A DNA stretch of 64,000 bases from a virus. Taxonomy: Duplodnaviria; Heunggongvirae; Uroviricota; Caudoviricetes. The stretch spans positions 59,364-123,363 of the IMG/VR virus record IMGVR_UViG_3300028048_000083. One strand, 5' to 3'. Positions 1-59,425 of this stretch are shown in pieces. Under the pieces are notes generated by a model. That model saw only the letters and a list, made by a program, of their open reading frames with translations, ran no database searches and was not told the DNA's origin. A program made the translations under genes and the position numbers. The number at the start of each line of letters is the position of its first letter. Positions within the stretch are counted from its first letter, which is position 1.

Positions 1-4
1 TGTA

Positions 5-613
5 ATGGGGGTCAAGAAAAAGACCGAATGGACGGAGTATAAGATACAACAGTGTCTGAGGAAGTTTTTCCTGTCGGAGTCAACAAAACGATATGAGTTA
101 TACAACTTGTATGTTTATGATTGGGAAAGTGACTACCTGACAATAACACGGTCAGGTATTGCCTATGAATGTGAAATCAAAATATCGAAGCAGGATTTCC
201 TGAACGACTCGAAAAAACACAACAAGCACGTAATTATAGCAGAGGGCAGATTGCCAAAGGGTCGTCCGAACTATTTCTACTATGCGGTTCCAGACGGGTT
301 GATATCCGTTGAAGATGTTCCAGAGCATGCTGGGCTTGTATATGTGACACCTTACGGCATACGAATAGTTAAAGAGGCGAAAAAACTCCATGACGGGAAA
401 TTCGACTATGAAGAAACCAAGCTGATGGACAAACTCTATTACAACTATGTGCATTATCGGGATTTGTACAAGGAAAGTGATATCACAGAGATGAAGAAGG
501 AAATAAAGTGGCTGAACAGGCAGATTATGGAATACGACGATATGCTTTCGGAAAGGGTGAACGAGATAGACGAACTGAAAATAATGCTTAAAAAACACGA
601 TATAGAATGCTGA
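5..613 (+). CDS. PD-(D/E)xK nuclease-like protein with C-terminal coiled coil (partial at window edge?)
   Basis: Motif ...VYDWESD...YECEIKIS fits the D...ExK pattern of PD-(D/E)xK nucleases. Lys/Glu-rich coiled-coil tail. Start lies at the window edge. Confidence 0.35.
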   Translation: MGVKKKTEWTEYKIQQCLRKFFLSESTKRYELYNLYVYDWESDYLTITRSGIAYECEIKISKQDFLNDSKKHNKHVIIAEGRLPKGRPNYFYYAVPDGLISVEDVPEHAGLVYVTPYGIRIVKEAKKLHDGKFDYEETKLMDKLYYNYVHYRDLYKESDITEMKKEIKWLNRQIMEYDDMLSERVNEIDELKIMLKKHDIEC

Positions 614-2487
614 ACATTAAAGATATTGAGGAAAGAAACCACGCTGAACCGCCAGAAGTCAAGGAAATAAGGGATAATATTATAAATTCATTCAAACGTC
701 TGGAATTTCAGGAAGGTCCTCATAAATATTATGTGCATAATGACGATGGGAGCGTTGTGGAATTGCCTAGTGTGTCAGCAATGACTCATCAATTCAAACC
801 AGAGTTTGAGACAGACTACCAGGCTGAAAAATATGCCTTGAAACATGCAATGGAAAAAGAGGCTGTATTGCGAATGTGGGAGGAAAACAATGTAAGAGCC
901 ACGAACAATGGAACTTCGACCCATCTCTACGGCGAAGGATTTATGCATTTCTTCATGGGTCACCCAGAAAAAATATCCCCCATAGTAAAACCCCAATACG
1001 AAAAAGGGTATCTGATACCTTATTCAAATAAACAGGAAGGTGTCCTGCAGTTTTACGAAGATTTGTTCACAATCGATTCAATATATCCAGTAATGCCAGA
1101 AGCTCAGGTTTATATGGGCATCAATCCGAATTATAGCGATATAATTCCGTATGCTGGAACATTCGACATGCTGTTTACGTACAAAGCACCTGACGGCAAA
1201 TGGAAACTGTTGCTATATGACTGGAAAGGTCTTCCGTTGGATACCCCAATATTAACAACCAAAGGTTTTAAAACAATGGGTACTCTAACCATTAACGATA
1301 TTGTATACGATAAGGATGGAAATGAGACCAGAATATTGCACATATCTGATATTCATAATAACCCTTGTATGAAAATCACATTTAATGATAATTACAGCAT
1401 TGTGTGTGATATTGACCACAGATGGTTAGTTAGTTCAAAAAAATGGGATAACGACAGAGTTATGACTACCAAAGAACTTCAAGAATACCTATCTGAGATT
1501 GGTGATAAATCAAAAAACAGCTATTATGCTGTCAGAATATCTAATAATAAACCGATTAGCAACACTAATCTGATTGAACTACCTATTGACCCGTATGTGT
1601 TTGGTGTGTGGCTTGGTGATGGGCATTCAAAAGCGGGCTATATTACAAACATGTATGATGGCATTTTCAATGAGATTGAAAAACGAGGTTATAAAGTAGG
1701 TAAAAATGTAAACGACGGTGTACATTGCGGGAAAGCAAAAACTAGATGTGTTTTTGGTTTATACACTAAACTGAAAAAATTAGGCGTATGTGGAAACAAA
1801 CACATTCCAGATTGTTATATTGTAAATTCAACCTATGAGCAAAGGCTTGATTTACTTAAAGGTATAATGGATACTGATGGGTATTATAATAAAACACGAA
1901 ATCGGTTCAGTATATCAACAACTAGAGAAAGCCAAGTTGAATTTGTGTGTAAATTATTAACAAGTTTAGGAATTAAACCTACGGTAATAAAAGCAAAAGG
2001 AAAATGTAACAATTGTAAAAAGAAAAAAATATTTGATAAATTTGATGTGTGCTTTTCAACCGATATTTATCCGTTTTTGGTAAGGCGTGTTGAAATTAAA
2101 CCAAGTAAAAAAAGTTATGATACGTGCAGAATTATATCATCAATTACCGCTTGTGATAGTGTACCGACAAGATGTATTGAAGTTGACAGTCCAACTCACA
2201 CATATTTAGCAGATAAAATGCTGTTGGTTACACATAACACCAACAAGTCGTTATATAAGGATTATTCCAGGGAATTTGGCAAAATGGCTTTGGAACCTTT
2301 TGACGACCTTTACGATGAGGATTACTCGTATTATATACTCCAATTGTCATGTTATTCTCTTTGTTTAATGCAGCTTGGGTATGAGATTGCGGACAGAAAA
2401 ATAATCTGGCTTAAAGAGGATGGTTCCTATGACAAAGTAAGTGTCCCAGATTTCACCTCCAGGGTTAGGGTCGCTTTACATAAATAA
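607..2487 (+). CDS. Intein-containing PD-(D/E)xK exonuclease-like protein (YqaJ/lambda-exo-like exteins)
   Basis: 626-aa ORF. N-extein ends ...LLLYDWKG (D-x-K). C-extein carries a YYILQLSCY motif resembling the QxQ/Y motif of lambda-exonuclease/RecB-family nucleases. Central 336 aa carry Hint and LAGLIDADG motifs. Confidence 0.5.
   Translation: MLNIKDIEERNHAEPPEVKEIRDNIINSFKRLEFQEGPHKYYVHNDDGSVVELPSVSAMTHQFKPEFETDYQAEKYALKHAMEKEAVLRMWEENNVRATNNGTSTHLYGEGFMHFFMGHPEKISPIVKPQYEKGYLIPYSNKQEGVLQFYEDLFTIDSIYPVMPEAQVYMGINPNYSDIIPYAGTFDMLFTYKAPDGKWKLLLYDWKGLPLDTPILTTKGFKTMGTLTINDIVYDKDGNETRILHISDIHNNPCMKITFNDNYSIVCDIDHRWLVSSKKWDNDRVMTTKELQEYLSEIGDKSKNSYYAVRISNNKPISNTNLIELPIDPYVFGVWLGDGHSKAGYITNMYDGIFNEIEKRGYKVGKNVNDGVHCGKAKTRCVFGLYTKLKKLGVCGNKHIPDCYIVNSTYEQRLDLLKGIMDTDGYYNKTRNRFSISTTRESQVEFVCKLLTSLGIKPTVIKAKGKCNNCKKKKIFDKFDVCFSTDIYPFLVRRVEIKPSKKSYDTCRIISSITACDSVPTRCIEVDSPTHTYLADKMLLVTHNTNKSLYKDYSREFGKMALEPFDDLYDEDYSYYILQLSCYSLCLMQLGYEIADRKIIWLKEDGSYDKVSVPDFTSRVRVALHK
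1228..2238 (+). mobile_element. Intein: Hint domain with LAGLIDADG homing endonuclease
   Basis: Block A-like GLPLDTPILTTKG. LAGLIDADG motifs VFGVWLGDGHS and LLKGIMDTDGYY. Terminal ...LLVTHN followed by +1 Thr (penultimate His, terminal Asn). The N-terminal boundary is approximate because there is no Cys/Ser at position 1. Confidence 0.65.
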
Positions 2488-2493
2488 AATAAA

Positions 2494-2524
2494 AAACGCA
2501 GCCGTTATTCGACTGCGTTTTTGC
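2494..2524 (+). terminator. Rho-independent terminator
   Basis: AACGCAGCCGTTATTCGACTGCGTT hairpin followed by TTTTTG, immediately after the stop of the 607-2487 gene. An A-run upstream makes it potentially bidirectional. Confidence 0.55.
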
Positions 2525-2546
2525 TGTATTGCCCGTTTAATGGAGG

Positions 2547-3383
2547 TTAATCCTCTTCATATTGGTAAAGGTTTCCGTCCTGGTACATGAAGTACATTGA
2601 ATACCTGTTGTTTTTGCGCAACAGCCAAACGCCGTTTTCATCAGTCATTATCCTGCAGTACTTTCTGTTAACCTGGGTCTTGACCAGAATATTGTCGGAC
2701 TGGTCGGTGATTGTGAAATACGTTATGCCTGTCCTTTCGTCCCTGTAAATGGTGTACACATAAGTATCGTCGGTACTTACGGCAACGACTGTGGTCGACG
2801 GGTACTTGTTGTTCACATAGACAACCACGTCATTGAACGGATATGCCCTGACATAGCTCCAGTATCCGTACCAGTACATGTTGTAGACAACCCAGTCATG
2901 GCATGGATGGTAATGCATACGGATTGGTCTGTGATGGTGTATCGGATGATGCATCGGCGGCATGGGGTGCATTCCATGTGGTGTATGATGTACGTGCGGT
3001 CTGCCATGCGGGGCATGAGATTTGGGTGCTGTTATCGGACTGTGGTGTTCAGGACGGCTATATGAGCCATTATTTTGGCTTCTGGGCGTGTTTCTGTCTT
3101 TTCTGGTAGGATTTGTTGTCACACTATGTGAACGCTCCTCAGAGCGCCTGTTTATGGACGAATTTTGACTTGAGCGTCTGGTTGGTGTATATACTGCCCC
3201 TGTGTTGCGTGACGATGGGCTGTAGCCGTTTCTGTTAGAAGATTGTCTTGGTGAGGCTGACGAAGACCTTGAAACGGAAACAGAGCCTCTTGATGAGGAC
3301 GATGAACGTGAAGATGTGTTTCTTTGGGCAAAACACACTGTCCCCAAGATGGTCAAAATTGCCAAAAAAACTATTTTTTTCAT
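2547..3383 (-). CDS. Secreted Ser/Arg-rich and His/Pro-rich protein
   Basis: Likely start at MKKIVFLAILTILGTVCFAQ (signal peptide). Then a low-complexity S/R-rich stretch and an HxH/P-rich stretch (HAPHGRPHVHHTPHGMHPMPPMHHPIHHH). C-terminal Tyr/Trp-rich globular part. Confidence 0.5.
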   Translation of the reverse strand: MKKIVFLAILTILGTVCFAQRNTSSRSSSSSRGSVSVSRSSSASPRQSSNRNGYSPSSRNTGAVYTPTRRSSQNSSINRRSEERSHSVTTNPTRKDRNTPRSQNNGSYSRPEHHSPITAPKSHAPHGRPHVHHTPHGMHPMPPMHHPIHHHRPIRMHYHPCHDWVVYNMYWYGYWSYVRAYPFNDVVVYVNNKYPSTTVVAVSTDDTYVYTIYRDERTGITYFTITDQSDNILVKTQVNRKYCRIMTDENGVWLLRKNNRYSMYFMYQDGNLYQYEED

Positions 3384-3441
3384 ATATAATTTTAATTTAA
3401 TTTGTTTATTCTCAATTATAAATATACAACATATTATAAAG

Positions 3442-3480
3442 AAAAACCCGAAAAACATCACTATTTTTCGGGCTGTTTTC
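3442..3480 (-). terminator. Rho-independent terminator
   Basis: CCCGAAAAA...TTTTTCGGG stem flanked by A/T runs, just downstream (minus sense) of the 3558-4145 gene. Confidence 0.45.
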
Positions 3481-3557
3481 GGAAAATTACCGTATCACAC
3501 AACAGTGTCAGGTTGTGAAATGGGGGTTGTGGTTTTCTTGACCGAGGCGCAATCACC

Positions 3558-4145
3558 TCAGTCCAATAAAACGGGTGGCAGGTTAGTGTGGTAACTCCAC
3601 ATTTTCTGTGCACGTGCCTGGATTGCGCCGTACAGTGTGCAGATGGTTGAACCAGCCTTCAATGCTGCTCTGTGCAATGACAGTTCCTCGCCGATGCTTT
3701 GGACAAAGGTATCCTCTGGTGCACAAACCGCCTTTGCTGTAACCTTGAATGTCTCGCAATAATCATATTCGACACATTCACCAAGCGGCTTTATTATGGT
3801 TCTGACTGGTATGATATCCCCAACTTGGGGAAGAAATTCCGTATCCTTACCACGGACATGTTTATAATATTTCCTGTTAAAAGCCAGTACCTTAGCTGTA
3901 CCACCAGGAAGAATGTAGTATTTGGCTACCACAGGTTCATTCATCGAATAGTTTGCGTTGGTGACTGTACACACAATCGGAAGGTATGTTCCGATAACAT
4001 TTTTAATGAATGACTGGTTAAACTGGAAGAACATTTCCTCGTAATGCCTCAGATTGACTTTCACAGTCATATCACAATAGACTGTGCTGTCTTCTGTACG
4101 GAATTTGGTATTTAAGACTTTGGCGTCAAAAAAATTTTTTTTCAT
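3558..4145 (-). CDS. hypothetical protein
   Basis: 195-aa ORF co-directional with its neighbours. No recognised motif. Confidence 0.45.
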   Translation of the reverse strand: MKKNFFDAKVLNTKFRTEDSTVYCDMTVKVNLRHYEEMFFQFNQSFIKNVIGTYLPIVCTVTNANYSMNEPVVAKYYILPGGTAKVLAFNRKYYKHVRGKDTEFLPQVGDIIPVRTIIKPLGECVEYDYCETFKVTAKAVCAPEDTFVQSIGEELSLHRAALKAGSTICTLYGAIQARAQKMWSYHTNLPPVLLD

Positions 4146-4166
4146 TTTAATTTCTTTTTAATGGTG

Positions 4167-5615
4167 TTAAAGTGTCATGTCGTCTGGTATGTTTTTTGCG
4201 TATTCAGTAAGCAGCTTGCTGATAAACTGCTCAGCATTGAAGTTGCAAGCCAGGAATTTAAGCATAGTCGGGTCATAGCCACTGATGAAGATACTGCCAT
4301 TGGCATCAACACGAACCGATTGGGGTGAGGTTCTGTTTCGTGAGTTGAGATTCCACCACACGAGTTTTGTCTTGATGCCGCGTTCACGCCATCTTTTCAT
4401 GGTTTCCTTGTTGGTTTCCTGGTATCCGCCGAAGTCAAATTCCATGTCGGACAACACAATCAGATATTCAGGGTACTCGGACTTAAGACCGCTCAGTATT
4501 TTCATGACCGCAGCAAAGTCAGTGTTACTGCAGTCACCAGTATACATTGAACGGATTTCCTTGTTATACTGATGTTCGTTGAGTTGTGGCAAAGATGTAA
4601 GATAATTATAGCTATACCTAGAACTACAGGAAGATTTGTCACCAAGGGTTATGAGATGGGGTTCGGAACTGAAAGTAATAACCTGATTCGGACAGTATGT
4701 GCTTGTTTTGGCAAGATAATGACCGATAGACAAAGCCTTACCCATGGCATCATCATTAAACATTGAACTTGACGTGTCGACAATCGGAATCCAGTTGCCG
4801 CTTATTTTCTCAATCTGGGAGAATGCCAAATCAGTGTCTATAGTGTTGGCTTTACGGTAGATGTCATATACCGTTGCTGTGGAGAAATTCATTTTCTTTT
4901 CACCCTTTTTGACAGAGTCAAGGTAAGCCTGGAAGCGGTCAGCCATGTCGGTTTTCTTGGCTTTGTTGGTGCCAGCGAAACGTGCCCAATATTTCAAAAG
5001 GGCTAAAGTGGGGATTTTGTCGAATTCGATTTCATCCTGTTCGCCTTGGGAAAGTTTGCTTTCCACTGTGGGGCATTTGACGAACTTGTTGTACTCTTGT
5101 TTCGTCATGCCAAGCAAGTTACGCATATGGCAAGCCATAAGGGTACTCTTGGCGACTTTGCCGTCTTTCTTCGCGACGTAATGCGGCATCCATTTTTTGG
5201 CCAGTTCGTTTCCGCTACGGCATTGGTCAAACAGGAACTTAAGCCAGTCTTCGTTGAATTCCTGACCTTTTGGCATTTCCCAAAGGTCATCAAAACGACC
5301 AGCAAAAGCCACAGCCTCAGGCGACAAACCGCTTTGGTACATAAGTACACGACCAAGGTCACGGTATTTCATGCCATGACGGGGGTCGCGCATGAACATT
5401 GCAAACAGTTTCTCAAGGTCACTGTTGCCGATTTTGACTTCATTGAGATGTTTTTGGTAATATTCAGCCTGGAAAATCAAATCAAGCAATTGGTTACCTG
5501 TACTTTTGTGTGTAAGGTCGCCGTTTTCGGTAAGCTTGTAATTGAAAAGTTCCGAAAGCTCGCTGTTGGAATGGTTTTTAACGGCATTTGCCAAACTATT
5601 GAAATCTATCTTCAT
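4167..5615 (-). CDS. vWA-domain protein (DUF2828-like)
   Basis: 482 aa. MIDAS-like IPIVDTSSSM motif. The overall layout resembles phage DUF2828 (TROVE-like plus vWA) proteins. Confidence 0.55.
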   Translation of the reverse strand: MKIDFNSLANAVKNHSNSELSELFNYKLTENGDLTHKSTGNQLLDLIFQAEYYQKHLNEVKIGNSDLEKLFAMFMRDPRHGMKYRDLGRVLMYQSGLSPEAVAFAGRFDDLWEMPKGQEFNEDWLKFLFDQCRSGNELAKKWMPHYVAKKDGKVAKSTLMACHMRNLLGMTKQEYNKFVKCPTVESKLSQGEQDEIEFDKIPTLALLKYWARFAGTNKAKKTDMADRFQAYLDSVKKGEKKMNFSTATVYDIYRKANTIDTDLAFSQIEKISGNWIPIVDTSSSMFNDDAMGKALSIGHYLAKTSTYCPNQVITFSSEPHLITLGDKSSCSSRYSYNYLTSLPQLNEHQYNKEIRSMYTGDCSNTDFAAVMKILSGLKSEYPEYLIVLSDMEFDFGGYQETNKETMKRWRERGIKTKLVWWNLNSRNRTSPQSVRVDANGSIFISGYDPTMLKFLACNFNAEQFISKLLTEYAKNIPDDMTL

Positions 5616-5641
5616 TGTTTTTTTGTGTTGAAAATTTATGT

Positions 5642-5678
5642 TATAACCGAAATTATTCTGTTTTTTCCAGGAAAACCA
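5642..5678 (-). promoter_or_regulatory. Conserved upstream motif (class B), instance
   Basis: Plus-strand TATAACCGAAATTATTCTGTTTTTTCCAGGAAAACC, lying upstream (minus sense) of the 4167-5615 gene. Confidence 0.4.
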
Positions 5679-5730
5679 AAAATTTTTAAAGGGGATGCGA
5701 TTACACCCCCTTTAAATGTAATCAGTTGTT

Positions 5731-6204
5731 TTAGAACGGGAGGTCATCGTCCGCTGTTGATTCTGGGACAGGCTCAGGTGTCGGGGCGGCTTTCTTTGGG
5801 GCAGCCTTTTTGGGGGCGGCTTCCTGTACAGGCTCCTGTGAGGGGACTGTTTGCATAGGTGCCGTCTGTGCATCCTGTGCGTCGTCATCGCGGCGTAATC
5901 CGCCGTAATATTGGACGTCGATTGCCCTGATATCCCTGCCAATCTCGTCATGACCTGTCTTCGTACTTGTGTAGGTACGGTCAGTTGGGGTACCGACCAC
6001 ATAGACATTGCTTCCCTTCTTAAGGGACTGGCACCATTTTTGGAGACCGCTGTCCCATACAGTGATACTATACCAATAAGTCACGTTTTCTGGGTCGTTG
6101 TATTCGTGGTTTGCCAGTCTGAATGTTGTGAATTGTCTGCCACTTGAAGTCGTCTTGACTTCTGGGTCATTACCAAGATGACCTGAAACAAAAATTGTTC
6201 TCAT
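5731..6204 (-). CDS. ssb: Single-stranded DNA-binding protein
   Basis: OB-fold-like N-terminus (MRTIFVSGHLGNDPEVKTT...), Pro/Ala/Lys-rich linker, and acidic tail ending DDDLPF. Confidence 0.85.
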   Translation of the reverse strand: MRTIFVSGHLGNDPEVKTTSSGRQFTTFRLANHEYNDPENVTYWYSITVWDSGLQKWCQSLKKGSNVYVVGTPTDRTYTSTKTGHDEIGRDIRAIDVQYYGGLRRDDDAQDAQTAPMQTVPSQEPVQEAAPKKAAPKKAAPTPEPVPESTADDDLPF

Positions 6205-7090
6205 TTTGAAATTTTTTTAATTGACTTATAATTTTAATTGACTTTGTTTGAAATTAGTGACCCCGACAGGACTCGAACCTGCAAGACCTTTCGGCACCTC
6301 TTTAGGAGAGAGGGACGCTTCCAGTTACGTGCTACGAGGCCAGTATATAAATTATCTAGTGTCGGCATACTCATATTAGTTGGCAAATAAACCGATTATT
6401 TCCATACCTTTCATGTGCTTTCAATTCCGTCAGGTTCCTTTCCATGTTCGAGCTTTCTATACCATCCAAAACACTTTTCGCTAACCTTATCCAATTCCAT
6501 GTGGTAGCATCTAACATAAACCATTGCCACAATTTTACCTGGTTTGTTATCTAGTTAAATGGTAAAATTGGCGATATTTATTAGTTTATCTCAACTATTT
6601 ACTCATGCTGAATACCCAACCTTTTACAGCCAGTTGAGCTATAGCTTTGTTTTTTAGTCAAACATACTCCTACTGGGTGAGTTGGATGGTATTAATAACC
6701 ATAGGGACGTTTCTGGACTTACCAGAGGTATGATGGTGTCTACTTACTTCCATTCACCATTAGTGCAATCCGACACAATCCGTTTATGGCTTTCACCAGT
6801 TTATGTTTCCTAAATACAGTTTCCTTACTATACTAAGGTGACTCGGTCTGTGGTTCTTACGGGACTTTGTCTTTTTGGTATTTTGTCTCTTGTTTACATA
6901 TCTACCTTAAAGTGAGACTACTTTACTTTTAAATCCAATTTTTACCATTGGACTTGTCCCGTAGTATTCCCTGTTTTGATATGGACAGGGAATTACCACT
7001 CGATAACTCGTTACCTTTTCTAACCTTTAGGGTTGTAGGATAACCGACACTAGACAAATTATTTCAAAGACCTGTTATTTAAACCTGTAA
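6205..7090. other. ORF-free ~880-bp region: candidate large structured ncRNA and/or replication origin
   Basis: No ORF of 60 aa or more in any frame across 886 bp, inside an otherwise gene-dense genome. Several local hairpins, e.g. CCCTGTtttgatatggACAGGG at 6969-6990, and a long-range stem CGGGAC(6862)/GTCCCG(6955). Flanked by ssb and the tRNA-like element. Confidence 0.3.
6258..6341 (-). tRNA. tRNA-like element, possible tRNA with CCU anticodon and long variable arm
   Basis: Read on the minus strand: acceptor GGCCUCG pairs with CGGGGUC (two G-U pairs), T-arm GCAGG-UUCGAGU-CCUGU, anticodon-like stem CCUCU/AGAGG with loop CUCCUAA, variable-arm hairpin GCC-GAAA-GGU. No encoded CCA. The D-arm is non-canonical, with 4 nt between acceptor and D-stem. 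Confidence 0.4.
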
Positions 7091-7465
7091 TTATTGATTA
7101 AGTTTATCAATAATCGAGGTTACGCTTTCGTTGACATCAATTCCAGCAAACGCCAGATTGGTGATTATAACTACCGTATTTCCGTTTGAGGATTTGTATA
7201 CCCTACTGATAATGTCGCTTGGTATGGCGATTTCATCGTTGTTTGTTACGGAATGAAGTATGATGAAATTACGGCTGTCGCCTATTTTTTTGATAATGTC
7301 GCTCGTTTTTTCATTTACCTCAAAAACTGTATCTTCTTTATCTTTAAGATAGATGGTGCTGTTTTTGGTGGTGTTAGAGTGGCTTGTAAAGCACACAATT
7401 TCATCAACGTTGAAACCAATCACTTCATTGGTGTCTTTCTTGTGCAGTATAATAAATTTGCTCAT
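7091..7465 (-). CDS. hypothetical protein
   Basis: 124-aa ORF. A GTTGTATATTTG promoter-like element (TAnnTTTG) lies immediately upstream. Confidence 0.5.
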   Translation of the reverse strand: MSKFIILHKKDTNEVIGFNVDEIVCFTSHSNTTKNSTIYLKDKEDTVFEVNEKTSDIIKKIGDSRNFIILHSVTNNDEIAIPSDIISRVYKSSNGNTVVIITNLAFAGIDVNESVTSIIDKLNQ

Positions 7466-7472
7466 TGTAATT

Positions 7473-7484
7473 CAAATATACAAC
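7473..7484 (-). promoter_or_regulatory. Bacteroidota-type -7 promoter element (TAnnTTTG)
   Basis: Minus-strand GTTGTATATTTG lies about 8 nt upstream of the ATG of the 7091-7465 gene. The same GTTGTATATT core recurs upstream of other minus-strand genes. Confidence 0.45.
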
Positions 7485-7530
7485 TTTTTTTGTTACTCAC
7501 AAAAAAATTTTTGCCAAAATAATACTAAAG

Positions 7531-7794
7531 TTAATTTTTGTAGACCATAAGCGAACCGTCACGGTTATAAAGAGGTGCAAGCAGTCCGTCTGATTCGGCT
7601 CCGCGCTGTACGGAATACATCACTTTTGTCTCTCTGTGATACACAATTCGCCAGTACTGGGTTTCTTCAATCACGACAAACATAGACGATGTGTTCTCCG
7701 TTTTATTGTTTTCAGTATATTCAATTGTGCGATAAGCGGGTGTGCATGATGCTAGCATAATCAAAGCTATGAATAAAAGACAGTATTTTTTCAT
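7531..7794 (-). CDS. Putative lipoprotein
   Basis: Likely start MKKYCLLFIALIMLASC, a signal peptide with a lipobox Cys. 88 aa. Confidence 0.5.
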   Translation of the reverse strand: MKKYCLLFIALIMLASCTPAYRTIEYTENNKTENTSSMFVVIEETQYWRIVYHRETKVMYSVQRGAESDGLLAPLYNRDGSLMVYKN

Positions 7795-7810
7795 TGTTAT
7801 TTGTTGTTTA

Positions 7811-8425
7811 TTATATAACCGTTTTTGTTGACTTTTTTCTTCGTTTTTCTTGCTTTTTTTCGGGAATCCAGTTAATGTCCATGGGCCATACTTCCAAGCC
7901 AGGTTCAAATTTGATATGGAATTTTTGGCATTCGTGTTTGTCCAATGTGAATTTTTTACCTTCAAAAGGTGTAATCTGTTTCATAATGACAATACCCATT
8001 TCAATGTCATTCACTGAATATATTGTCTTTACACATTGGTATTTGATAATAATGTCTGGCGAACCGTCTTTCGGTTTGATGCGCTGGTAGTAATATCTGC
8101 CTATCTTGAATTTGGTCTTAATCCTGTTTTTGGCTCGATGTTTGGTCAGGTATTTTGTCTGATATGTATTCTTGTTATCAGACAAAGACACGTTCTCTTC
8201 GACAGGTGAGGGAACTGGTGATGTTGACATGGTCTTTTTCTTGTGTTTTTTATTGTCAGCCATTACATATGCATTATATCCACCCGTAGTGTCAATCATG
8301 ATAGGATGACCACTTGTTACATAATATTTACCTGTAGTGTCAATCATGATAGGATGACCACTTGTTGACTCCATAACATTATTGTTTAATGTGGTTACAT
8401 ACAATTTGTTACTACTTGGATTCAA
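7811..8425 (-). CDS. hypothetical protein with internal tandem peptide repeat
   Basis: 204 aa. Two exact copies of a 33-nt unit (8296-8328 and 8343-8375) in the CDS encode TSGHPIMIDTTG twice. Basic C-terminal half. Confidence 0.5.
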   Translation of the reverse strand: MNPSSNKLYVTTLNNNVMESTSGHPIMIDTTGKYYVTSGHPIMIDTTGGYNAYVMADNKKHKKKTMSTSPVPSPVEENVSLSDNKNTYQTKYLTKHRAKNRIKTKFKIGRYYYQRIKPKDGSPDIIIKYQCVKTIYSVNDIEMGIVIMKQITPFEGKKFTLDKHECQKFHIKFEPGLEVWPMDINWIPEKKQEKRRKKSTKTVI

Positions 8426-9521
8426 TCATCTTAAGTTCACGGGAAGTCTGATTGTAGATGTCAACCAGTGCACGTTCCATGGTTTCACGGTTTTTCTCGC
8501 CAGCATCATGGATTTTGCGGACTTCTTTAAGCATTTCAATGAACTGCTTGTTGACGTCTTTGAGTGTCTCAAGTTCAACGATTGTCTGTTCACTTGCACG
8601 GGCTGTTTCCTCGGAATTGTAGCGCACGTTTTTGGCTGTAGCCTTCATCATGCGGTTGGTCGCACCTGAAACCATCTTTGTCGCATCGATTGCGCTTTTC
8701 TGTTTGTTAATCATGATGGCAAGCGCCAGTTCGTTTTTCCATAACGGCATAACCTGGTTGATTATGTTCTCGCATTTGTCGATGATGGCGTCGTTGTTGG
8801 CTTGAGCTGCCATGATATGGAACTGGTTGTTTGAAAGTATGTGCTCGGTAACTTCCAGGTCGGCGATTTTCTTGGATATTGCGTTGACCCAGTTCTGCAT
8901 GTTCTGCACATCCCACTGGCTGTTTTCAGGGTCGTTTTGCATTTCTTTGAGTTTTGCCTCATTTTCTTTCAGTTTGAGCTTAAGGGCAACAATAAGCTCC
9001 TTGAGACGGTCAATGCTGACGTCGTTGTTCCTGAACATCGATTCAAGTGTACTGTTGTCTTTTTTGGCTGTAATTTTGGCTGCGTCCATTTTGGCGCAGA
9101 TTTTCGAAACATTGTCCTGGATAGTGTCGGACTGGATAAGCACTTTGTCGACGGTCTTCACCAGGGAACGGAGAATTGGCATCGAGCGAAGGAACGCCTT
9201 GAACTTGTTGTTTGGGTCAAGGTCGCTGATGTCGACCATGTTCAGCTGAGCCAGGGTGTCGTTGACACAGGCGATAATCTCGTCGTTGTTTTTGGAACGT
9301 GCGGAAGAAAGAATACCTTCGCTTGACTGTGAAATTGTTGAATTGATTTCGCTGCCATACACCTGAAGTGTGGTTTTGTCGTTGATATCCACAGATTCGG
9401 CAATAGCAAGATAAGCCTGTTTTTCCTCGTCGCTGATGTTTGCGATATAGTTTTCATAATCCACACTGCGTTTAAGGCTCACCAGTGCGTTGTTGTTGTT
9501 GGTATTGTTATTTCCTTCCAT
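8412..9521 (-). CDS. TelA-like (toxic anion resistance family) coiled-coil protein, tentative
   Basis: 369 aa. Asn-rich N-terminus and long helical, coiled-coil-prone body. The similarity to the TelA/KlaA family is judged by eye only. Confidence 0.35.
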   Translation of the reverse strand: MEGNNNTNNNNALVSLKRSVDYENYIANISDEEKQAYLAIAESVDINDKTTLQVYGSEINSTISQSSEGILSSARSKNNDEIIACVNDTLAQLNMVDISDLDPNNKFKAFLRSMPILRSLVKTVDKVLIQSDTIQDNVSKICAKMDAAKITAKKDNSTLESMFRNNDVSIDRLKELIVALKLKLKENEAKLKEMQNDPENSQWDVQNMQNWVNAISKKIADLEVTEHILSNNQFHIMAAQANNDAIIDKCENIINQVMPLWKNELALAIMINKQKSAIDATKMVSGATNRMMKATAKNVRYNSEETARASEQTIVELETLKDVNKQFIEMLKEVRKIHDAGEKNRETMERALVDIYNQTSRELKMIESK

Positions 9522-14687: not shown

Positions 14688-15116
14688 ATGCTCGAAAACA
14701 TCCCTAAAGTATACACACACGGTGTTATTGGACAAGGCGAACAAATAACAAAAGCGTTCGAAAAACTAGGTGTCGACAATCCGACACACTATAAATTCAA
14801 CGACCCCTGGGTCTTGTATTATGCAGACAGAAACTCCCACGTTGCAATGGTTGAACCAAACACTGACTTGTATTATTCAATCGTTTCAAGCAATGAATGG
14901 AAAGAACTTAAAATCAAACAACCGAAAAAAACGCATAGTTTCCTAATTACTGTTAGAGAAGGCGCAAGTTCCTGTGAAGGATGCCATGCCGCCAACAAAT
15001 GTTCGCCAGAACAAAAATGCAAATGCCAGTTAGCTGCATTGCTAAATGAGTTAACAAAATGTAATGAACTAACTGGCAAGATTTTGGAAATAAAGGAAAT
15101 TAATACATCTCCTTGA
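14688..15116 (+). CDS. hypothetical Cys-rich protein (lone plus-strand gene)
   Basis: 142 aa with a C-terminal CEGCHAANKCSPEQKCKCQ cluster. Converges on, and overlaps by 17 nt, the minus-strand ThyX-like gene. Confidence 0.4.
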   Translation: MLENIPKVYTHGVIGQGEQITKAFEKLGVDNPTHYKFNDPWVLYYADRNSHVAMVEPNTDLYYSIVSSNEWKELKIKQPKKTHSFLITVREGASSCEGCHAANKCSPEQKCKCQLAALLNELTKCNELTGKILEIKEINTSP

Positions 15117-16038
15117 TTTTGTTTGCAACAATCTCACATTCTGGGTCAGCGTGGGAATCACAACGCCGCCAGAAGAAATTCTGCCATGCGTCGTCAAATC
15201 CGCAAAGCCTCAATTCAGCCTTGGCACTTAGTGGGAAAAGACGTTTCAGCTGTTGCGGTTGCAACCCCTCGTTTGCCATAATAAGATAGTTGTCTTCGTC
15301 ATCGGACATGCGCTGAAGAAACATCCATTCCGTACAGCGTTTGTCAAACTCCTCGTCACTAATGGAATCATTGGACAAATATGTCTCATCTTCATTTTCC
15401 CATGCCTTAAAAGTCTCTTCGCTAATCCAGTATGGTTTAATGAATGTCAATTCATTGTTGTATTTGTTTTTGCTGTAGTTGCAGAATCTGGTCGATTCGC
15501 AGATTGACGACAGTGTTATATGCGTTCTGTTGTCGTCAGTGCACCCACGGCTCATCCACATGGTAAAGGTGCGGCGTCTGTCATGTAGTTCTGTTGGCTC
15601 ACACCAGAAATCGCGAACATCATCCAACCAATTCGCATCATAGCCATGTTCCCACGCTTCCTTGTCAGTAGCGTAAGAACCTTGCATAATCACGCGCATA
15701 TTTGTGGTAATATACCAATTGCCGCCAAATTTGGAATGAGTCCATATTGTATTCTTGTGAACACCGTATTTTTCATATCTCCCAAACAACCTGCTGTCAA
15801 TTAGTCTTAATTCCATGTATGCTGTGCTTGGAATCTTAAGATACACTGTACCGAATTCCAATGGACGGGTGTGTCCGTTTTTCAAAAGCACCTGTTCAAC
15901 AAATTCTTTAGGTGGCATTTTCATTTTGTCAGCATCGGTCTGATAACAGATTCTGGCTGCGGATGCTATGGCACTATAAATCCCTTCTATTCCTGGCTCT
16001 TGAATATACTCTTCTACCTTATTATCTACTAGTTTCAT
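15100..16038 (-). CDS. thyX: ThyX-like FAD-dependent thymidylate synthase (divergent)
   Basis: LLKNGHTRPLEFGTVYLKI resembles ThyX HGHETPFEH. The C-terminal NFFWRRCDSHADPECEIVA resembles ThyX RADSHAQWEI. The RHRxxxS motif is degenerate (RTHITLSSICESTRF). Confidence 0.6.
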   Translation of the reverse strand: MKLVDNKVEEYIQEPGIEGIYSAIASAARICYQTDADKMKMPPKEFVEQVLLKNGHTRPLEFGTVYLKIPSTAYMELRLIDSRLFGRYEKYGVHKNTIWTHSKFGGNWYITTNMRVIMQGSYATDKEAWEHGYDANWLDDVRDFWCEPTELHDRRRTFTMWMSRGCTDDNRTHITLSSICESTRFCNYSKNKYNNELTFIKPYWISEETFKAWENEDETYLSNDSISDEEFDKRCTEWMFLQRMSDDEDNYLIMANEGLQPQQLKRLFPLSAKAELRLCGFDDAWQNFFWRRCDSHADPECEIVANKIKEMY

Positions 16039-34326: not shown

Positions 34327-35496
34327 ATGAGTATAAGGACTTATAACATACAACTCTCAGGCGAACAGTCGTTCGTGAACCATTGGTTCAATCTCTTGTC
34401 AACGACAAGAGATGCATATAACCGTTGTTCACAACTGATTGTTGAGAACGATATTCCTCTCAGTTTGAAAGTGGTTCATAACCAGTGTTATAATATCCTT
34501 CGCTCAGAATACCCATCACTACCGTCACAGACGGTGATACGCGTTCAACGAGAGGTGCTGGCTGCATTCAAGTCCAAGAAATCCAACAAGCACAAGGGTT
34601 CTGCTCCACAGAAACATAATTTGTCAATGACGTTGGACAAACGCATGTACTCTAACTTCACTCGTGACGGCATATCCCTTGTGAGTGAGGTCAGCAACAA
34701 GCGTAAACGCTTGTCCTTCACACCATATCCTAAGATTGCGGAGATGTTTGCCACATCTGTGGCAAAAGACCCTACCATCTTCTGGAGGAATGACGGACTG
34801 TGGCTGTCAATACCGTTTGAATTTAACGGATGTATGCCTGAAAGCATATATGCCATAGGTGTGGACCTTGGCATGAAGAGGTTCTTCGTAACATCGGAAG
34901 GCAAGGCTTTCACTGACAAGGAGTATCTTGGACGTAGGCGAAAGATAAGGCATCTTAAGAAGAAACTACAGTCCAAGGGAACGAGGAGTGCCAAGAAGCG
35001 CCTCAAGAAGGTTTCAAGGAAAGAACATAACATGTCAAAGAACTATTGTCATCAGGCGTGCAACGCCCTCATAAGGTCGACAAAGGCAAGCTTTGTCGTG
35101 ATGGAGGATTTGGCAAAGATAAAGAAGAACACAAGCCGAAGCAAGGAAGGGCACAAGAGGAAGAGACACAACAACGCCATATCACAGGTGCCGTTCCATA
35201 TGTTTAAGCAGATATTGACGTACAAGGCAACGCTTGCTGGAAAGCAGGTGGTATCGGTTTCGCCATTCAATACAAGTCAGTGTGACAGCAGGACAGGTCT
35301 CAAGGAAGGAAAACGACAGGGCTGTCGTTTCTATACCGAAGACGGATACCTGTTGGATGCCGACTGGAACGCAGCAGTCAATATAGCTCAGAAGAGCAAA
35401 CACCCACTCTCAAAATCAGTGTTGCCGTTGCACGGCAAACTTGAGTTCCTGAGTGGCAGGGCATCGTCAACTGCCCAATCGTATCAAGACCTTTAA
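34327..35496 (+). CDS. tnpB: TnpB (IS605/IS1341-family OrfB; RNA-guided nuclease family)
   Basis: RuvC-I-like IGVDLGMKRFF, RuvC-II-like VVMEDL, C-terminal zinc-finger region NTSQCDSRTG...GCRFYT, and RuvC-III DADWNAAVNIAQK. No IS200-type tnpA is adjacent. Confidence 0.85.
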   Translation: MSIRTYNIQLSGEQSFVNHWFNLLSTTRDAYNRCSQLIVENDIPLSLKVVHNQCYNILRSEYPSLPSQTVIRVQREVLAAFKSKKSNKHKGSAPQKHNLSMTLDKRMYSNFTRDGISLVSEVSNKRKRLSFTPYPKIAEMFATSVAKDPTIFWRNDGLWLSIPFEFNGCMPESIYAIGVDLGMKRFFVTSEGKAFTDKEYLGRRRKIRHLKKKLQSKGTRSAKKRLKKVSRKEHNMSKNYCHQACNALIRSTKASFVVMEDLAKIKKNTSRSKEGHKRKRHNNAISQVPFHMFKQILTYKATLAGKQVVSVSPFNTSQCDSRTGLKEGKRQGCRFYTEDGYLLDADWNAAVNIAQKSKHPLSKSVLPLHGKLEFLSGRASSTAQSYQDL

Positions 35497-59236: not shown

Positions 59237-59425
59237 TCAGTCAACCCATAGCCAATCCAGGAATTTCAGCCACATAGACAGTAAAAAAGGCATTGTATAT
59301 CCAAACAGGATATATTCAAAACCCCAGAGGAAAGGTATTTCGACTATTATAAACGGTACCAACATTATTCCAATGATGATTCCTGCTAGCAGTTTAATGA
59401 CATTAATCAGTCTGTTTTTCATTTT
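59237..59425 (-). CDS. small membrane protein
   Basis: Trimmed to MKNRLINVIKLLAGIIIGIMLVPFIIVEIPFLWGF.... Confidence 0.35.
   Translation of the reverse strand, partial: KMKNRLINVIKLLAGIIIGIMLVPFIIVEIPFLWGFEYILFGYTMPFLLSMWLKFLDWLWVD

Follow-up and report, generated by a model that had tools for sequence, protein, structure and literature searches.

Class 3 inteins splice by a chemistry that has been known since 2009, and we take Catera, a phage that carries one of them, to be a member of cluster C1. Inteins of this class are defined by a non-nucleophilic residue 1, by a Trp at block B position 12 (B12), a Cys at block F position 4 (F4) and a Thr at block G position 5 (G5), together the WCT triplet, and by Ser or Thr at the +1 position, with the DnaB intein of mycobacteriophage Bethlehem as the prototype (Tori et al. 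2010, PMC2807308). In cluster C1 mycobacteriophages, Kelley et al. (2016) described 40 inteins in a Cas4/RecB-like exonuclease, at a single insertion point in its PD-(D/E)XK motif, and analysed them among the class 3 inteins, where they cluster with the TerL1-d terminase inteins; for this intein their table cites Tori and Perler 2011 (PMC5050341). The class 3 intein in Gp206 of Catera (MP-Catera) splices efficiently (PMC3196547). From that table citation, the gene numbering of C1 phages and our assumption about the cluster of Catera, we infer that Gp206 is the Cas4/RecB-like nuclease of the C1 phages. A 2025 survey of actinophages counted 138 Cas4-exonuclease inteins, of class 3 and with LAGLIDADG endonucleases, placed their site in RecB motif III ('EFKT') and argued for switching between the nucleotide-binding site of terminases and motif III (bioRxiv 10.1101/2025.01.02.630785). 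Here we analysed a window of 64,000 nucleotides (nt), by which we mean the whole stretch from position 59,364 to 123,363 of the IMG/VR virus record IMGVR_UViG_3300028048_000083 (Caudoviricetes), in which an open reading frame (ORF) of 626 amino acids (aa) at 607..2487 on the + strand (stop codon 2485-2487) encodes a RecB/Cas4-like PD-(D/E)xK nuclease interrupted by an insert. An intein bearing a LAGLIDADG endonuclease had been proposed for this ORF from the letters alone (the original prediction), and Pfam profiles, PDB sequence matches and AlphaFold2/Foldseek comparisons bore this out. The insert is very probably a splicing-competent class 3 intein whose first residue is Gly.

The ends of the insert were set by alleles that lack it. 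When joined, the flanks form a protein of 289 aa, which was used as a query against 5.8 billion proteins. This revealed an intein-free protein, P0001, that is identical to the joined exteins except for A86V, and more than 100 further orthologs, mostly of ~284-318 aa. At the DNA level, the window was compared with three intein-free metagenomic contigs from different samples (L001, L002 and L003), which are syntenic with it at 95-98% nt identity and share the gene order glucosaminidase, 202/203-aa ORF and nuclease, with a 278-aa ORF, a 218-aa ORF, a 482-aa DUF7788 protein and SSB on the opposite strand. Window positions 606-1227 and 2236-8471 align to the intein-free contigs as abutting blocks with a 3-nt overlap, which corresponds to an exact insertion of 1011 nt. 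With a caret marking the insertion point, the alleles of L001, L002 and L003 read ...GACTGGAA(A/G)^AC(C/A)AACAAG..., or DWK^TNK, and more fully ...CTATATGACTGGAA(G/A)^AC(C/A)AACAAGTCG..., or LYDWK^TNKS; at the junction in L003 the sequence is ...GACTGGAAG^ACCAACAAG..., in its longer form ...CTATATGACTGGAAG^ACCAACAAGTCGTTA.... As Lys differs from Asn, and Gly from Thr, only one placement of the insert is possible, in which the intein begins with Gly and ends in Thr-His-Asn, with Thr at +1. A shift of the boundary that would bring Cys or Ser to position 1 is excluded, since the empty-site alleles permit only DWK^G...N^TNK. The choice between Gly and Leu that the original prediction had left at position 1 is thereby settled in favour of Gly, and its length of 336 aa becomes 337 aa (1228..2238, +; Gly1-Asn337, ORF residues 208-544). 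The Pfam Hint profiles with which it had proposed to fix the boundaries were unusable, as they gave no match, and the empty-site alleles served in their place; the comparison with intein-free orthologs that it had also proposed confirmed that the junction restores a continuous DWK^TNK nuclease motif, with the insertion lying right in the (D/E)xK motif as claimed. The N-extein (207 aa; 607..1227, +) is collinear with the DNA of L001-L003 up to nt 1227 and ends in Lys207, the -1 residue, while the C-extein (82 aa; 2239..2484, +) opens with Thr+1 (nt 2239-2241), which completes motif III as DWK-T-N-K. An open frame of 337 codons would arise at random at the local base composition with P ~1e-13, and the other two forward frames of the insert contain 18 and 57 stops. 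Its GC content is 32.6%, versus 39.8% and 38.2% in the exteins. Each of the empty alleles differs from the window by one synonymous base at the insertion point, where the window reads AAA^ACC (1225-1227, 2239-2241), L003 AAG^ACC (744-749) and L002 AAA^ACA (2508-2513); the next-nearest flank differences are 79-109 nt away. These single differences could be due to chance (synonymous divergence, dS, 0.10-0.17) or could be homing-site variants that affect recognition by the endonuclease.

Sequence comparison and structural modelling both identify the insert as a bifunctional intein, with a Hint fold and a two-motif LAGLIDADG endonuclease. Its best PDB sequence matches by phmmer were the M. smegmatis DnaBi1 intein 6BS8 (E 4.8e-16) and the M. 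chimaera DnaB1 intein 6RIX (E 1.9e-15), both of class 3 and of solved structure, each of which aligns to the insert in two separate segments (intein residues 2-69 and 303-337), the pattern expected of a Hint domain split by an endonuclease. On this alignment the N-terminal Hint half comprises approximately intein residues 1-70 (1228..1440, +) and the C-terminal half residues 296-337 (2113..2238, +). Between them lies the LAGLIDADG homing-endonuclease domain, at approximately residues 101-295 (1528..2112, +) as judged from Pfam, the helices of the model and the fold matches; Pfam reports LAGLIDADG_3 (E 8e-6, 26.5 bits, cut-off 22.5) and Hom_end (E 1.3e-4, 22.4 bits, cut-off 21.1). An AlphaFold2 model of the intein, built from 75 sequences, was predicted with a mean local distance difference score (pLDDT) of 95.0 and a template modelling score (pTM) of 0.92, and its two LAGLIDADG helices, residues 122-131 and 203-217, end in D131-G132 and D217-G218. 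In the DNA these correspond to PYVFGVWLGDG at nt 1591-1623 (+; Asp131) and YEQRLDLLKGIMDTDG at nt 1834-1881 (+; Asp217). Foldseek against the PDB matched the model over its full length to PI-SceI (VMA1; E 8e-18, TMq 0.70), the TliVMA and PhoVMA inteins and PI-PfuI, which share the two-domain fold at TMq (template modelling score for the query) 0.65-0.72 and E down to 8e-18, although they are class 1 inteins with a Cys1 nucleophile and are 11-16% identical. Parts of the model matched class 3 DnaB mini-inteins (TMt, the score for the target, 0.77-0.85), I-DmoI (over the endonuclease domain) and the hedgehog autoprocessing domain. Among the PHROG families, the insert matches the intein-bearing part of large terminase families (phrog_36964, E 9e-37), in agreement with the switching between terminase and motif III argued for in the actinophage survey. 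The motifs quoted in the original prediction, GLPLDTPILT, VWLGDGHS, IMDTDGYY and THN followed by Thr, between the flanks LLLYDWK and TNK...YYILQLSCY, are all present. Standard profile libraries detect the LAGLIDADG core only, with neither Pfam nor NCBIfam reporting a Hint model, as might be the case if a free-standing endonuclease had simply been fused in frame as an independent domain. As both Hint halves align to solved inteins, the predicted fold is a Hint fold matching full-length PI-SceI as well as mini-inteins, and the insert splits a catalytic DxK^T that is contiguous in 63/63 aligned intein-free orthologs, such a fusion is refuted. Neither finding that would have overturned the original prediction, a Cys or Ser at position 1 or a fused domain lacking a Hint fold, was made. 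No second intein of the same family was found in all six frames of the 64-kb window. The intein contains 13 Cys residues versus 2 in the spliced nuclease, including CxxC-like pairs (KGKCNNCKK, HCGKAKTRC) in the endonuclease domain; at the CNNC position the alignment consensus has one Cys only, and the pair is not family-wide.

The splicing residues agree with the definition of class 3. Block A reads GLPLDTPILTTKG and starts with Gly1 (nt 1228-1230, +), so that position 1 holds no Cys, Ser or Thr nucleophile; block B contains Asp61 (B7), His64 (B10, nt 1417-1419) and Trp66 (B12, nt 1423-1425); block F, PTRCIEVDSPTHTYLA, contains Cys316 (F4, nt 2173-2175), and block G ends in Thr335-His336-Asn337 (nt 2230-2238). 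The WCT triplet is therefore complete, as W66 (in DHRW), C316 (in TRCIEVD) and T335 (in VTHN), and it is accompanied by the block B His64, the terminal His336-Asn337 and Thr+1, at a position where Ser or Thr, rarely Cys, is expected. In the phmmer alignment to 6BS8 and 6RIX the corresponding columns read HRW/HQW, RCIEVD/RCVEVD and VTHN/PTHN. The DnaB inteins 6BS8 and 6RIX/6RIY thus resemble the window intein in blocks A, B, F and G (H-x-W, R-C-[IV]-E-V-D, T-H-N) and in the -1 Lys, but they are inserted at a helicase P-loop site (GK^S/T) and begin with Ala or Pro, and 6BS8 and 6RIX, being mini-inteins, have no endonuclease, whereas the window intein has a Gly start and a nuclease-motif site and has kept its endonuclease. 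The unusual splicing chemistry suggested by the original prediction is, accordingly, that of the established class 3 mechanism (PMC2807308), the WCT triplet having been overlooked, and no new chemistry is revealed. An N-terminal nucleophile is missing from class 2 inteins as well (PMC2807308), and the intein might in principle splice in a class 2-like manner, with the +1 residue attacking the N-terminal junction directly, or with Cys316 in a purely structural role. Class 2 is, however, known only from archaeal KlbA proteins and lacks the WCT triplet (PMC2807308, PMC3196547), while the window intein has all three triplet residues, is closest in sequence to inteins of proven class 3, and has at +1 a Thr, as class 3 inteins typically do (among the 125 relatives described below, Thr in 92 and Ser in 31), which makes such a route extremely improbable.

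For the nuclease-site lineage, Gly1 is the norm rather than an anomaly. In an alignment of the window intein with 74 relatives (75 sequences, 44-56% identical), G1, L2, T6, D61, H64, W66, C316, T335, H336 and N337 are invariant, as are G132, D217 and G218 of the LAGLIDADG motifs, with D131 at least 90% conserved. An HMMER scan of 1.84 billion representative proteins returned 16,927 matches to the extein or the intein, thousands of the relatives found coming from metagenomes, and residues were counted in the 125 full-length inteins among its top 150 proteins. Residue 1 is Gly in 81 of these, Ala in 25 and Pro in 9; the +1 residue is Thr in 92, Ser in 31 and Cys in 2; the C-terminus is THN in 120/125; and the block F Cys is found in all 125, the nearest PDB and PHROG relatives being the class 3 DnaB and terminase inteins. 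Of the nuclease-hosted inteins in the rows listed, nearly all have Gly1 directly after DxK, the nuclease site; inteins that begin with Ala or Pro are mostly found in long multi-intein proteins, behind a P-loop-like ..GK or in other contexts.

Purifying selection on the extein is strong in comparisons with its closest relatives. The ratio of non-synonymous to synonymous divergence (dN/dS) of the extein was 0.014 versus L003 (16 synonymous changes, 1 non-synonymous) and 0.05 versus L002, as pairwise values that are not assignable to the window's own branch, and versus four other intein-plus assemblies the exteins showed 8 synonymous and 0 non-synonymous changes. As a gene inactivated by a non-splicing insert would be unlikely to show such values, splicing is to be expected. 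The intein parts were compared with P0241, the closest intein-bearing ortholog beyond the window's own 90%-identity cluster (~75% identical), from which the window differs with saturated synonymous sites and a dN of 0.156 in the N-terminal Hint half, 0.154 in the endonuclease and 0.170 in the C-terminal Hint half, versus 0.24 and 0.22 in the exteins. Since dN is low where synonymous sites are saturated, the splicing and endonuclease parts are both under purifying selection.

Several points weigh against the assignment as a splicing-competent class 3 intein. The Hint halves of the insert gave no significant match to Pfam or NCBIfam models, and the Hint assignment therefore rests on the PDB sequence matches and the predicted fold. 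As far as we could find, no Gly1 member has experimental support for splicing or DNA cleavage, and in the characterised class 3 inteins the first residue is Pro or Ala (PMC2807308, PMC7664689). The sole Gly1 intein that we found named in the literature, Arsp-FB24 Arth_1007, lacks Cys F4 and is inactive (PMC2807308, PMC3196547), and Sauce gp210 of cluster C1 has Ser at the aligned first position. A class 1 intein onto which the WCT triplet alone was grafted did not take up class 3 splicing (PMC7664689), so that the signature is necessary and not sufficient, and the selection values, as stated, are pairwise. The original prediction had raised the possibility that the intein can no longer splice, in which case the nucleophile would have been lost, the nuclease would be permanently split and the gene would be a pseudogene in the making, like Arth_1007 of Arthrobacter FB24. 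Residue 1 is indeed Gly, and the one Gly1 intein that we met in published work is an inactive pseudogene (PMC3196547). Arth_1007, however, lacks both Cys F4 and His B10, whereas the window intein has both, together with W66, T335, H336, N337 and Thr+1, at positions that are invariant across the 75 sequences; Gly1 is the rule in this intein family after DxK (81/125); the 1881-nt frame is intact in AT-rich DNA; the same 626-aa allele is present in at least 4 independent assemblies; and the extein dN/dS of 0.014-0.05 points in the same direction. We therefore consider loss of splicing very improbable, and a splicing-competent class 3 intein remains by a wide measure the most credible description of the insert.

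The interrupted protein is, to judge from its motifs and its predicted fold, a RecB-like (MGME1/Cas4-related) PD-(D/E)xK nuclease. In 63 intein-free orthologs, His106, Asp187, Asp205, Lys207, Gln242 and Tyr246 are invariant and correspond to the RecB-family motifs I (His), II (hD), III ((D/E)xK) and IV (QhxxY, here Q242-x3-Y246). In the window these are encoded at nt 922-924 (motif I, His106), 1165-1167 (motif II, Asp187 of GTFD) and 1219-1227 (the start of motif III, Asp205-Trp-Lys207) in the N-extein, and at nt 2341-2355 (motif IV, Gln and Tyr of QLSCY) in the C-extein, all on the + strand. The residue after Lys207 is nearly always Thr in the orthologs (at least 90%) and the next is invariably Asn; the intein parts Lys207 from both. 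The spliced protein matches PHROG 298 'exonuclease' (E 2.5e-22), while no Pfam family passes its threshold for the spliced protein or the 63 orthologs. An AlphaFold2 model of P0001 (predicted pLDDT 95.2) was matched by Foldseek to MGME1 (E 2.8e-5), the nuclease domains of AdnAB and AddB, the Cas4-family proteins ACE1 and SSO0001, and Exo5, at 10-18% identity and TM 0.26-0.46. These proteins share with the extein its fold and motifs I-IV, including QhxxY; the extein differs from Cas4 and AddB in having no Cys cluster. Cas4 in the strict sense was ruled out, as the four-Cys iron-sulphur (Fe-S) cluster is absent and the spliced nuclease has 2 Cys, both in the segment QLSCYSLC. The original label of a lambda-exo/YqaJ-like PD-(D/E)xK nuclease was right as to the superfamily and imprecise in its first part: lambda-exo/YqaJ had no support from profiles or fold, with no Pfam YqaJ match at E <= 1 for the ORF nor any in the 63 orthologs, and no entry described as lambda exonuclease occurs in the top 50 Foldseek PDB matches. 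From what is known of PD-(D/E)xK enzymes, the unspliced precursor should be inactive as a nuclease.

On the basis of the class 3 literature, we infer the following course of splicing and homing. Cys316 (F4), aided by His64, Trp66 and Thr335, would attack the Lys207-Gly208 bond to give a block-F branched thioester, from which the N-extein would be passed to the side chain of Thr+1, giving a standard branched ester. Cyclisation of Asn337 would free the intein, and an O-to-N acyl shift would produce a native Lys-Thr bond, restoring DWKTNK in an active 289-aa nuclease whose predicted sequence is that of intein-free P0001 but for one residue. The excised LAGLIDADG endonuclease probably cuts intein-free alleles, such as that of L003, at the junction during co-infection, whereupon the intein would be copied in. 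Homing of this kind would account for the presence of both intein-plus and intein-minus alleles in phages that are otherwise almost the same.

The distribution of alleles is patchy, as a homing element would produce, and the GC content of the intein, lower than that of the exteins, likewise speaks for mobility. Extein relatives that are 84-100% identical lack the intein, while P0241, whose exteins are 70-76% identical at the aa level, carries it. Divergence from P0241 is similar for intein and exteins (78% versus 70-76% aa identity). This fits vertical descent across that span and speaks for a reading in which splicing is intact and the endonuclease dead, the intein being an immobile passenger that is kept only because its precise deletion is rare. 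Both catalytic Asp residues of the LAGLIDADG motifs and the flanking Gly residues are conserved, however, the endonuclease dN of 0.154 with saturated synonymous sites is as low as in the Hint parts, and alleles of both kinds, with and without the intein, occur among phages of 95-98% identity, so that a dead endonuclease seems unlikely, if a good deal easier to entertain than a failure to splice; an endonuclease that retains activity is the reading we prefer. No co-conversion tract from a P0241-like donor was seen, the extein flanks matching the intein-free alleles and not P0241. Public metagenome assemblies contain the identical 626-aa protein, on a contig of 123,363 bp, and a 626-aa protein of the same 90%-identity cluster (P0384) occurs in several public assemblies on contigs of up to 245.6 kb (L009, ENA ERZ28612959 scaffold_31, 245,598 bp). 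The genome of the source phage is thus probably larger than 120 kb, and would be of jumbo size if the 245-kb scaffold is all phage.

Compared with the actinophage nucleases described above, the locus is alike in most respects. The Cas4/RecB-like inteins of actinophages have the same (D/E)xK^T site, a split Hint domain around LAGLIDADG, the WCT triplet, a THN end and Thr+1, and the C1 phages likewise show intein-plus/minus polymorphism among close phages. By tblastn against annotated phages we found two that also share the Gly-Leu start, namely Traft412 gp72 ('Cas4 family exonuclease', a Mycobacterium phage), which reads VVDYK^GLDLDT...HIW...ACIGVD...PTHN^TG, and Frankenweenie gp79 (a Streptomyces phage), which reads LVDWK^GLALDT...HLW...QCIKVD...VTHN^TT. 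Public, partly annotated data therefore already contain this arrangement, at this site, in this class and even with Gly1. The actinophage examples differ in being 31-37% identical at the aa level to the window over the matched region (intein and adjoining extein residues), whereas the window extein belongs to an Fe-S-less RecB-like branch and its host is an unannotated large phage from metagenomes. What is new here is modest and consists of this host phage, the Fe-S-less extein branch, the 31-37% identity to annotated examples and the numerous metagenomic relatives. Megablast of window positions 1-6000 versus 50,697 phage records gave no match, and tblastn of an ATPase gene of the window found relatives of up to 37% identity only, in unrelated phages. 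The closest extein relative with an annotation derives from human faeces or a Bacteroidales metagenome-assembled genome, and relatives of the extein come from human faecal and Bacteroidales-associated metagenomes. Class 3 inteins at nuclease motif III, published for actinobacteriophages, are in this way also known from a large uncultured phage, which is probably a gut or Bacteroidales phage. The annotation of the gene should read intein-containing RecB-like exonuclease rather than 626-aa hypothetical protein, and the intein-plus allele together with three empty-site alleles forms a natural matched set that is convenient for studies of Gly1 splicing and of homing in phage populations. It is a long shot, but the Gly1 inteins at DxK^T may form a very large unsurveyed class 3 clade outside the actinophages in which the invariance of Gly1 reflects a distinct straining or activation of the Lys-Gly scissile bond, or alternatively the intein, with an essential and oxidisable Cys316 among its 13 Cys, may act as a redox or condition switch that times the activation of the phage recombination nuclease, as has been proposed for mycobacterial DnaBi1. 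In the C1 phages themselves, many of the GenBank records of Sauce (L005) and 202 further C1-type phages name the nuclease with its intein 'HNH endonuclease' or 'hypothetical protein', and intein-free C1 alleles (e.g. Bxz1, Cali) match the flanks of Sauce gp210 at 99% identity by megablast.

Upstream of the nuclease lies an ORF of 202 aa (5..613, +), whose stop overlaps the ATG of 607..2487 (7-nt overlap). Among the PHROG families it resembles 2776 (unknown function, E 1e-29) and 5429 ('DNA repair protein', E 3.5e-12); Pfam gave no match. The product of this ORF may be a functional partner of the nuclease. Directly upstream of the nuclease there is an indel polymorphism, at window positions 482-605 and positions 1347-1888 of L001/L002. 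At this site L001 and L002 have ~540 nt with an extra ORF of 140 aa (no Pfam match), and the window and L003 have 124 nt instead and a different C-terminus of the 202-aa upstream ORF.

Elsewhere, the window encodes ThyX-like, RNA ligase, nucleotidyltransferase, TelA-like and DUF7788 proteins. The ThyX-like ORF is divergent (15100-16038, -), with Pfam Thy1 (E 5e-18) aligned over profile positions 60-183 only, versus residues 157-310, so that its first 150 aa have no assignment; as a second interrupted gene it was rejected, having no intein signature. The sole tRNA in the 64 kb, a tRNA-Arg (anticodon CCT) at 6257-6341 (-), adjoins the SSB gene (5731-6204, -). An ORF of 389 aa at 34327-35493 (+) resembles TnpB/IS605 OrfB (Pfam Cas12f1-like_TNB, E 4.4e-15, and OrfB_IS605, E 3.3e-7; PHROG 506 'transposase', E 1.7e-41), lies on the strand opposite to almost all of its neighbours and falls in a 2-kb bin with a GC content of 0.409 and a GC skew unlike those of its surroundings, and is probably an insertion-sequence-like insertion in the phage genome.

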